Part shown: positions 8,821-17,014 of the stretch, in pieces
How positions within the stretch are numbered: position 1 is the first letter of the stretch
How the letters are laid out: each line of letters opens with the position of its first letter
Assembly: GCA_020833025.1 (NCBI GenBank)
Contig: JAJHRB010000030.1
Location: 1-17,800, forward strand
Origin: Thermoproteaceae archaeon
GTDB lineage: Archaea > Thermoproteota > Thermoprotei > Thermoproteales > Thermoproteaceae
Direction of reading: 5' to 3'
Length of the DNA stretch: 17,800 nucleotides
Translations under genes and position numbers: made by a program
The notes under the pieces: generated by a model
What the model was told of the DNA's origin: nothing
Databases searched by the model: none
The model's input: the letters and a program-made list of their open reading frames with translations, nothing else

Positions 8821-9099
8821 TCACCCGACCAGCTCTATCTTCTTGAGTCTCGCGATGCCCTTGACGGTCTTGTAGCCGCACTTGCTGCACTGGAACACCA
8901 GCGTGGCGGTCTTTGTCGTCTTGGCGAATCGCTTCTGTTTGGGCTTGCGCGACGACCCGTAGCCCTTGCACTTGCGCTCGTACCTCCTCTGGCCCTCGGC
9001 CAGCGACCGCCTCTTGCCCTGGTGGTACACCGACACGTTGTGCGGCGTGTACGTATTGCAGCGCGGGCAGTACTTACTCACGACTTTTGGGAACCGCAC
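8821..9099 (-). CDS. rpl44e: 50S ribosomal protein L44e
   Basis: [20 protein letters not shown]...GYGSSRKP...KTTK...QCSKCG. Confidence 0.97.
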
Positions 9100-12782: not shown

Positions 12783-13512
12783 CGGCGGCCTTGACAGCCC
12801 TGACTATTTCGGCGAGTCTCTCGGGCCTCTCCTCGGCTATTGTCCCCGTCACCACGACGTTGGGCCTCTCCCTGGCTATGGAGTAAGCCGCCTCGCCGCT
12901 CCTAATGCCGCCGCCCACTATGAGCACTCTCGGGAAGGCCTCTCTGGCGGCCCTGACGGCTTCCGGCGGCACGGGCCTCTGAGCGCCGCTGCCCGCCTCG
13001 AGGTACAGCGCGCTGAAGCCAATGTAGCGCGCGGCGAGCGCGTAAGCGGCAGCTATGTCGGGCCTCTCGTAGGGCACGGGCCTCGCCATGGACAGGAAGC
13101 CCGCGGCGCCTCCGTCGCCAACTATGACGTAGGCCGTCGAGATGACCTCGAGGCTCTTGAACCGCTTGGCTATAAGCACGGCTCCCTGGACCTGCGCGCC
13201 GACAATGAAGTACGGGTCCAGCGAGTTGAGCACGCTCAAGAATAGAACTCCGTCTGCCTCGCCTGTGAGCTGGGCTACCGACCCCGGGAATAGAATTACG
13301 GGCACGCTAGCCACGGACTTTATGTCCCTCACCACCTCCGCCATCTGGCTCTCGCAGACGCCCGTAGACCCCCCGACCAGTATGCCGTCAGTGCCGGCCT
13401 CTACCGCGAGCCTCGCAATCCTGACGGGATCCGCGGTCTTGTCGGGGTCTATCAGCGTGAAGTGCTTCACTCCCTCGAGGAGGTACTCGTACAGCCTACC
13501 CGCCTGTCTCAT
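12772..13512 (-). CDS. Geranylgeranylglyceryl phosphate (GGGP) synthase
   Basis: [45 protein letters not shown]. Confidence 0.95.
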
Positions 13513-15611: not shown

Positions 15612-15625
15612 GCCGGCGGGAAGCG

Positions 15626-15672
15626 TCAGCGTTCAAATCCCCGATCACCGGTCACCCGCAGCCCTTCGTCAC
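15626..15672 (-). ncRNA. Box C/D guide sRNA (no. 3), predicted tRNA Cm56 guide
   Basis: Minus strand: C GTGACGA (15672-15666), guide AGGGCTGCGG, D' GTGA, spacer CCG, C' GTGATCG, guide GGGATTTGAACG, D CTGA (15629-15626). The D guide is complementary to tRNA G53-UUCRAAU-CCC63, and its fifth base from box D pairs with C56. Confidence 0.88.
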
Positions 15673-16878: not shown

Positions 16879-16894
16879 CGAAAAAGATAAAAAG
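16879..16894 (+). promoter_or_regulatory. BRE/TATA-like promoter upstream of the tRNA half
   Basis: CGAAAAAGATAAAAAG. Applying the ~29-nt spacing seen elsewhere puts the transcription start near G16915. Confidence 0.6.
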
Positions 16895-16914
16895 CGGGAG
16901 CCCGGAGCGGGCGG

Positions 16915-17014
16915 GCTCGGCGGGACGCCGCGCAGGCCTCGTAACGGCGCGGCGGGAGAGCGGGAGGTCCCGGGAGGGCGCCTCCCGGGAGTTCGAATCC
17001 CGGCCGGGGCTCCA
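16915..17014 (+). tRNA. 3' half of tRNA-Thr(CGU), positions 30-76, with leader and two cis introns (37/38 and 53/54); candidate split tRNA
   Basis: Exons 16936-16943 (GC CTCGTA), 16959-16974 (A GCGGG AGGTC CCGGG) and 16992-17014 (TTCGAAT CCCGG CCGGGGC T CCA). Introns 16944-16958 (15 nt) and 16975-16991 (17 nt) each form a 4-bp central helix with 3-nt bulges. U73 fits archaeal Thr. Positions 1-29 are absent. Confidence 0.82.

Follow-up and report, generated by a model that had tools for sequence, protein, structure and literature searches.

The window analysed here, the whole 17,800-nt stretch, is the entire contig C91 of assembly G000, a metagenome-assembled genome from a deep-branching Pyrobaculum-like archaeon, 1.558 Mb in 126 contigs with 62.6% G+C, 93.9% completeness and 0% contamination. 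It carries positions 30-76 of a tRNA-Thr(CGU), followed by an encoded CCA, at 16936-17014. A 259-aa protein is encoded next to this piece, and a search for other assemblies encoding it found none. ARAGORN reported no tRNA gene in the window, and Rfam returned no hit at gathering thresholds and no tRNA match even at E ≤ 10. We read these blanks as a limit of the detectors, not as evidence of absence.

An earlier note on this DNA had divided the tRNA piece into three exons and two introns, and its coordinates and sequence matched when the window was re-read (Table 1). The exon letters are AGCGGG AGGUC CCGGG after the 37/38 intron and UUCGAAU CCCGG CCGGGGC U CCA after the 53/54 intron. Both cis sites satisfy the bulge-helix-bulge rule: the central helix pairs 4/4, and each of the two bulges has 3 nt. 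The rule was checked by a program that reads, on each strand, four central-helix bases, two bulge bases, the cut, one bulge base and the outer helix. The note had also claimed that the 5' part of the tRNA is missing, and a search for GCCCCGGTAGCTCAGCC, the 5' acceptor strand together with the D arm, with up to three mismatches gave no match on either strand of the window.

Upstream of G30, a GC-rich stretch that ends in GCCGCGCAG at 16935 follows an A/T-rich promoter-like box. This box fits the AAAnnTTAAAwA type, as read upstream of other tRNA pieces printed from this assembly. By the 21-nt box-to-start spacing of the 5' half described below, transcription of the window piece would start near 16915, which is the point where the leader/trailer helix begins, and the leader is about 21 nt long. 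Between the box and the predicted leader start lies a 7-bp GC hairpin (GAGCCCG...CGGGCUC, 16898-16918). We considered the A-rich box and hairpin as a minus-strand terminator and rejected this reading, as there is no gene on the minus strand that ends at this point. Neither the window piece nor the 5' half on contig C34 is followed by a clear oligo-T terminator.

Table 1. Features of the tRNA-Thr half-genes and of other candidate split tRNAs in assembly G000. Window coordinates are those of contig C91; a vertical bar marks a cut site.
Feature	Position	Strand	Basis
BRE/TATA-like promoter box, A/T-rich (AAAAAGATAAAAA)	window 16881..16893	+	sequence reading; likeness to boxes of other tRNA pieces
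Leader segment, predicted to pair with 5'-half trailer C34:9035-9051 (outer helix h' of the trans bulge-helix-bulge)	window 16914..16929	+	RNA duplex folding
3' end of leader, six bases: GCGC (pairs with G24-C27 as central 4-bp helix), then AG of bulge AG|G30	window 16930..16935	+	motif check
Exon, tRNA positions 30-37 (GC CUCGUA), anticodon CGU	window 16936..16943	+	sequence; ARAGORN on joined exons; relatives' exons
Cis intron, canonical 37/38, 15 nt	window 16944..16958	+	central helix CTCG/CGGG 4/4; bulges TA|A, AG|A
Exon, positions 38-53: anticodon-stem 3' strand, variable loop, T-stem 5' strand	window 16959..16974	+	joined product; relatives' exons
Cis intron, 53/54 in T arm, 17 nt	window 16975..16991	+	central helix CCCG/CGGG 4/4; bulges GG|A, AG|T; intron helix of 3 bp
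Exon, positions 54-76: T loop, T-stem 3' strand, acceptor 3' strand CCGGGGC, U73, encoded CCA	window 16992..17014	+	sequence; joined product; relatives' exons
BRE/TATA-like box of 5' half	C34:8969-8981	+	sequence; spacing agrees with window box
Second 3' half, tRNA-Thr(UGU)	C88:12830-12962 (locus L002:231-363)	+	BLAST of mature sequence; G30 at 12883
tRNA-Thr(GGU), interrupted at 29/30, halves in tandem	C74:17519-17829 (locus L003:220-530)	+	motif and pairing analysis
Candidate Asn(GUU)	C20 with C74		single best partner, 4/4 central helix
Candidate Trp	C46 with C28		single best partner, 4/4 central helix
Candidate Arg(UCU)	C89:28993 with C13		single best partner, 4/4 central helix
Candidate Lys(UUU)	divergent pair on C81		single best partner, 4/4 central helix
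Candidate Lys(CUU)	tandem pair on C31, halves ~300 nt apart	same strand	single best partner, 4/4 central helix
Candidate Leu(CAA)	C89:55050 with C34		single best partner, 4/4 central helix
Weaker candidates: Met(CAU), Leu(GAG), Leu(UAG), Leu(CAG), Gln(UUG), Gln(CUG)
3' pieces (3' ends; minus strand marked)	C74:5845, C28:19256(-), C13:7391, C81:446(-), C31:66(-), C34:22788, C102:3234, C89:48568, C89:53495(-), C19:684(-), C89:493, C13:7130(-)
5' pieces (starts; minus strand marked)	C20:13302(-), C46:7391(-), C89:28993(-), C81:627, C31:372(-), C100:10465, C89:55050(-), C14:10839

The missing 5' part is present on another contig. The earlier note had predicted that the 5' half would read GCCCCGGTAGCTCAG...GAGCGCCC and continue, after a single base, into a trailer able to pair with the leader, and a scan of the assembly for GCCCCGG followed by T located it at C34:9003-9033 on the plus strand. 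From position 9003 the sequence reads GCCCCGGTAGCTCAGCCCGGTCGGAGCGCCC|A-GGCAGCCCCGCCGGGCC; the 31-nt exon GCCCCGGTAGCTCAGCCCGGTCGGAGCGCCC covers tRNA positions 1-29 and is followed by AGGCAGCCCCGCCGGGCCGCCGC. The TATA box foreseen for this half is also there, with AAAGTTTTAAATA ending 21 nt upstream of the exon. The 31-nt exon occurs once in the assembly. It lies mid-contig (9003 of 36,318), as does the window piece (16936 of 17,800), so the two are not neighbours, and the 5' and 3' parts of tRNA-Thr(CGU) are encoded at separate loci.

Transcripts of the two loci could be brought together by base pairing. Leader GCGC (16930-16933), which had been proposed to pair with G24-C25-G26-C27 of a then hypothetical 5' exon, does so at all four positions with the exon on C34, leaving the bulges CC|A and AG|G30. 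Beyond this central helix, trailer and leader are complementary for about 16 bp. The first 3 bp join GGC of the trailer to GCC of the leader (16927-16929); past a bulged A comes a single pair, then an A.C mismatch, and a final run of 11 bp, one of them G.U, reaches 16914. The intron-side helix is present at the 29/30 junction. The exon-side helix h is absent, both here and at 53/54, and the motifs at these two sites are therefore of the relaxed form, which calls for a broad-specificity heterotetrameric endonuclease.

With the splicing motif enforced, the C34 and C91 halves fold at -38.2 kcal/mol against a free minimum of -40.8, which places the Thr(CGU) motif fold 2.6 kcal/mol above a competing local register. 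Trailer-leader duplex energies are -46.2 kcal/mol for C91 and -41.3 kcal/mol for the C88 piece described below, against a background of random genomic 32-mers with a mean of -22 kcal/mol and an SD of 7, and non-cognate pairs reach -37.5; duplex energies in this GC-rich genome are only moderately specific. When leader and trailer were compared by BLAST with 40 relatives, exons alone were matched, and no close relative with either element was found. A metagenome scan with a 27-nt pattern across leader and exon returned nothing, and a looser 17-nt pattern gave 120 chance matches, none of them in a tRNA context.

Joining the 31-nt C34 exon to the three window exons produces a 78-nt molecule that ARAGORN folds as a clean tRNA-Thr(cgt) cloverleaf, with the predicted sequence ...GAGCGCCC|GCCUCGUA|AGCGGG... 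across 29/30 and 37/38. At all 75 of 75 positions the joined exons agree with those of tRNA-Thr at 16 loci from Pyrobaculum, Thermoproteus and Vulcanisaeta. A BLAST search with the mature sequence detected no intact gene for tRNA-Thr(CGU) and none for tRNA-Thr(UGU) in the 93.9%-complete, 126-contig assembly. The 5' half, the three splicing motifs and the product support that note's proposal of a split tRNA that depends on one trans and two cis splicing events. On this evidence, all of it drawn from sequence, we consider that window 16881-17014 is probably (at about 0.87) a gene in its own right, which encodes the 3' half of a tRNA-Thr(CGU) made by trans-splicing.

We envision the following pathway. 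The 3' half would be transcribed from a BRE/TATA box of its own, with a start some 21 nt ahead of G30, and a second transcript, from C34, would consist of the 31 nt of tRNA positions 1-29 with a GC-rich trailer behind them. This trailer would anneal to the leader over its ~16 bp, with the acceptor strands able to pair as well, and this annealing would build the bulge-helix-bulge at 29/30 from the G24-C27/GCGC central helix and the bulges CC|A and AG|G. Following the established archaeal pathway, the splicing endonuclease would cut both trans bulges and the cis motifs at 37/38 and 53/54, and RtcB would presumably ligate the exons into a 75-nt tRNA plus CCA. The genome encodes a splicing endonuclease catalytic subunit with N- and C-terminal domains (C61:40093-40611; E = 9e-29 and 3e-16), a second endonuclease-like frame of 127 aa with a weak match only (C29:11828-12046; E = 0.0015), and an RtcB ligase on C60 (E = 6e-151). 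The RtcB family match (C60:4614-7331; loci L172 and L173) is divided into two blocks that a gap of about 1.4 kb separates inside a single 961-aa open frame, which suggests an intein-like insert.

The same 5' half may serve more than one tRNA. A second promoter-bearing 3' half, for tRNA-Thr(UGU), lies on contig C88 with its own TATA-like box (AAAAATTAAATAT), a 37/38 intron identical to that of C91 and an 18-nt 53/54 intron; the C88 and C91 pieces are 94% identical across leader and gene. The C88 leader, CUGGCCGGCGGGGCGCCGCGCAA, fits the C34 trailer better than the C91 leader does, and for this pair the unconstrained local minimum-energy structure is the splicing-motif structure itself, at -41.3 kcal/mol. 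Because no other 5' exon with C27-C29 was found in the assembly, the C34 half most likely is common to the Thr(CGU) and Thr(UGU) 3' halves, and its transcript would then be spliced to either.

The third threonine isoacceptor, tRNA-Thr(GGU), is also interrupted at 29/30, with its halves on one strand of C74, 196 nt apart. The spacer carries a TATA-like box, there are 17 bp between trailer and leader, and two more cis introns interrupt the gene. With its tandem halves, this arrangement looks intermediate between an intron-bearing and a split gene. The end of C74 is repeated at the start of contig C75.

Comparison with relatives points to the origin of the split. An exact search for the 31-nt exon, with one genome per species, returned 27 stretches in Pyrobaculum, Thermoproteus and Vulcanisaeta, most of which consist of the exon, a short cis 29/30 intron (typically AGGGGCNNAGCCCCGCGCAA) and the rest of a Thr(CGU) or Thr(UGU) gene. 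All 16 loci with 75/75-identical exons carry a cis intron of 20-36 nt at 29/30, some of them with a 37/38 intron as well, and we therefore derive the split from the 29/30 cis intron. The ends of the relatives' intron (AGG... and ...GCGCAA or ...GCGCAG) resemble the start of the C34 trailer (AGG) and the end of the window leader (GCGCAG). In Thermoproteus sp. AZ2, all three of the sites that are interrupted here (29/30, 37/38 and 53/54) hold cis introns. Among the matches listed, most genomes of the same genus have two copies of the 5' exon, against one copy plus a distinct Thr(GGU) exon in this genome.

Synteny suggests that the 5' half lies at the ancestral site. A ribosomal-protein operon beside the C34 half is present in 17 of 17 other genomes of the genus, and an intact tRNA-Thr follows it immediately in the five locus-A relatives that we examined, at the position where this genome has only the 5' half. 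The operon is at most 72% identical in DNA to that of any of the 17 genomes, and the perfect conservation of the exons despite this divergence argues for function and not decay. The split would thus have arisen from a cis 29/30 intron that relatives carry in both genes, with the 5' half still at its ancestral place. For the 3' half, relative locus L038 (which resembles genome G014) has an intact Thr(CGU) gene in a region whose synteny is with 14.6-16.8 kb of the window; this gene lies some 1.2 kb away from the position that corresponds to the C91 piece. A T-loop-like motif, TCAGCGTTCAAATCC, lies in an intergenic gap of the window (15625-15645) and recurs in inverted orientation in the matching gap of L038, the one with the intact gene; this motif pair may be a trace of local rearrangement. 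Elsewhere, locus L049 of the Pyrobaculum metagenome-assembled genome CTOTU25734 (DAITPC010000031.1) has an identical Thr 5' exon with a promoter that runs into unrelated sequence, with no 3' part within the 8 kb fetched; here too a Thr gene may have been disrupted, in a separate lineage.

These comparisons bear on other explanations of the window piece. It could be a non-functional remnant, a partial 3' copy of a tRNA-Thr gene left by an att duplicate or another duplication while the working gene lies elsewhere. tRNA-Thr genes are integration targets in another archaeon (PMC3293823), att-like remnants apparently exist in this genome as partial tRNA-Ser 3' copies beside intact genes, and the ~6% of the genome that is unassembled has room for a complete Thr(CGU) gene or a further 5' half. 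Yet neither Thr(CGU) nor Thr(UGU) has an intact gene in the assembly, and the first base of the piece coincides with the conserved intron site at 29/30. The piece has a leader complementary to the trailer of a 5' half with its own promoter box, and the two build a 4/4 bulge-helix-bulge; the tRNA-Ser copies have no such leader. Every exon base is conserved in a deeply diverged lineage. The neighbouring genes are of the housekeeping kind and encode inositol-monophosphatase-like, ribosomal, EamA, HTH, SPFH and peptidase S24/S26-like proteins, and we found no integrase or other mobile-element gene among them. The earlier note had held an att-site origin less likely, a judgement that the lack of an intact copy and of a nearby integrase and the complementary leader bear out, and we consider a remnant very improbable.

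An assembly or binning artefact, with the gene contiguous in the chromosome or the halves taken from different strains in contigs that are chimeric at a tRNA repeat, seems to us similarly implausible. The genome is a fragmented one of metagenomic origin, and assemblers can go wrong at repeats such as the near-identical Thr(CGU) and Thr(UGU) genes, but a breakage of this kind does not account for two mid-contig pieces with a correctly spaced TATA box and with a leader and trailer whose mutual complementarity exceeds the length of the intron hairpin in any relative. The same design recurs in about a dozen further tRNAs elsewhere in the assembly, on other contigs, and estimated contamination is 0%. 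Still less credible is a single very long cis or permuted precursor from which both halves are co-transcribed and cis-spliced. Read-through is conceivable where halves lie close together on the same strand, as for Thr(GGU) (196 nt) and Lys(CUU) (~300 nt) in this genome, and a low-level read-through precursor has been reported for the Aeropyrum split tRNA-Asp (PMC3218864). By contig geometry, however, the Thr(CGU) halves are at least ~9.8 kb apart if permuted and ~44 kb apart if collinear, protein genes on both strands flank each half, and each half has a promoter box of its own. We thus favor trans-splicing of two independently transcribed Thr(CGU) halves.

Split tRNAs have been reported in seven hyperthermophilic archaeal genomes, for 12 anticodons and with at most six tRNAs per organism (PMC4033280, PMC4390854); the known cases come from Nanoarchaeum, Caldivirga and four Desulfurococcales, and no tRNA-Thr is listed among them (PMC3218864, PMC4033280, PMC4390854). 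A survey of five Pyrobaculum genomes found none with trans-spliced tRNAs (Chan, Cozen and Lowe, 2011; PMC3218864), and our full-text literature search found no report of a split tRNA-Thr or of a split tRNA in Pyrobaculum. The closest parallel is the Caldivirga system of 2009, as summarized in later papers (PMC4390854, PMC4033280). According to these summaries it shares with the present genome separate half-genes with complementary leaders and a bulge-helix-bulge, the use of one 5' half for two synonymous isoacceptors that differ at position 34 (C/U), and leaders that correspond to same-position introns of related species. The present case differs from what they describe in its amino acid (Thr), its family and genus, and the two cis introns in the 3' half.

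Nanoarchaeum equitans (Randau et al., 2005; PMC3491384; PMC4390854) likewise trans-splices independent halves with a heteromeric endonuclease and relaxed motifs. In that reduced symbiont it is the 3' half that is shared, whereas here the 5' half would be shared and the anticodon resides on alternative 3' halves; Thr is not among the six split tRNAs of N. equitans. For the "recently split" Desulfurococcales tRNA-Asp(GUC) and tRNA-Lys(CUU) (PMC3218864), as here, synteny ends inside the tRNA gene and relatives are unsplit; halves that are neighbours or in tandem resemble intermediates there, and so do those of Thr(GGU) (C74) and Lys(CUU) (C31) in this genome. What sets the present case apart from them is that the relatives' unsplit gene has a cis intron at the exact split site, which makes the route from intron to split explicit. 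The multi-intron tRNA-Thr genes of Pyrobaculum, Thermoproteus and Vulcanisaeta (loci L015 and L024-L050) agree with this genome in exons, the three interrupted sites, intron ends and bulge bases, but all three interruptions are in cis there and each isoacceptor has its own 5' exon.

Whether fragmented tRNA genes are ancestral or intron-derived has long been debated, and split tRNAs are central to this question. The candidate described here would add a split tRNA-Thr in a genus where the earlier survey found none (PMC3218864), one 5' module for two isoacceptors and one tRNA with one trans and two cis splicing events. Its history is unusually clear, with 16 relatives that have identical exons and a cis intron at the split site and with a 5' half that remains at the ancestral locus.

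The threonine genes appear to belong to a broader pattern. We sought further 3' pieces as a T arm, acceptor strand and CCA that lack the 5' strand in cis, many of which bear promoter-like boxes, and ran a matching scan for promoter-bearing 5' pieces with GC-rich trailers. Greedy or unconstrained pairing of halves was noisy; limiting partners to halves with fitting acceptor strands gave a unique partner for each half. An anticodon-loop regular expression with free intron length was far too unspecific in this GC-rich genome, and because ARAGORN accepts many wrong variants from brute-force intron removal, we relied on identity to relatives' exons. The breaks of the other half-genes fall at 30/31, at 29/30 or in the D loop. 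Read by eye, the Leu and Gln 3' pieces seem to draw on single 5' pieces. At least nine split tRNAs look well supported, with up to 15 candidates in all, an apparent number that compares with six in the summaries of Caldivirga.

By a slight margin, we favor the view that the intron-bearing tRNA set of this genome has largely turned into half-genes, with about 15 tRNAs made in trans (three Thr, four Leu, two Gln, two Lys, Arg(UCU), Asn, Trp and Met(CAU)) from ~10 5' and ~15 3' pieces, and with single 5' modules for two isoacceptors (Thr, Gln) or up to four (Leu). This would be the most fragmented tRNA set known. If the pattern holds genome-wide, it would provide a natural record that split tRNAs arise from cis introns and not the reverse, as well as a system for studying how tRNA fragmentation spreads and how shared halves are balanced. 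Standard tRNA finders miss all these pieces, and such genomes therefore look short of essential tRNAs. The tandem and divergent neighbouring halves look like evolutionary intermediates.

Other partial tRNA copies in the genome are of a different kind. Partial 3' copies of tRNA-Ser(GCU) and tRNA-Ser(CGA), beside intact genes, occur at C12:492-579 and C12:11322-11399, at C17:1-130 and C17:10494-10581, and at C78:4323, those on C12 being direct repeats 10.8 kb apart; these look like att duplicates of integrated elements and not like split tRNAs. No partner was identified for an odd 5'-like piece on the minus strand at C89:50115 (GCCCCGGTAGCACAGCCCGGAC...), which combines a Thr/Cys/Glu acceptor strand with an aberrant D arm.
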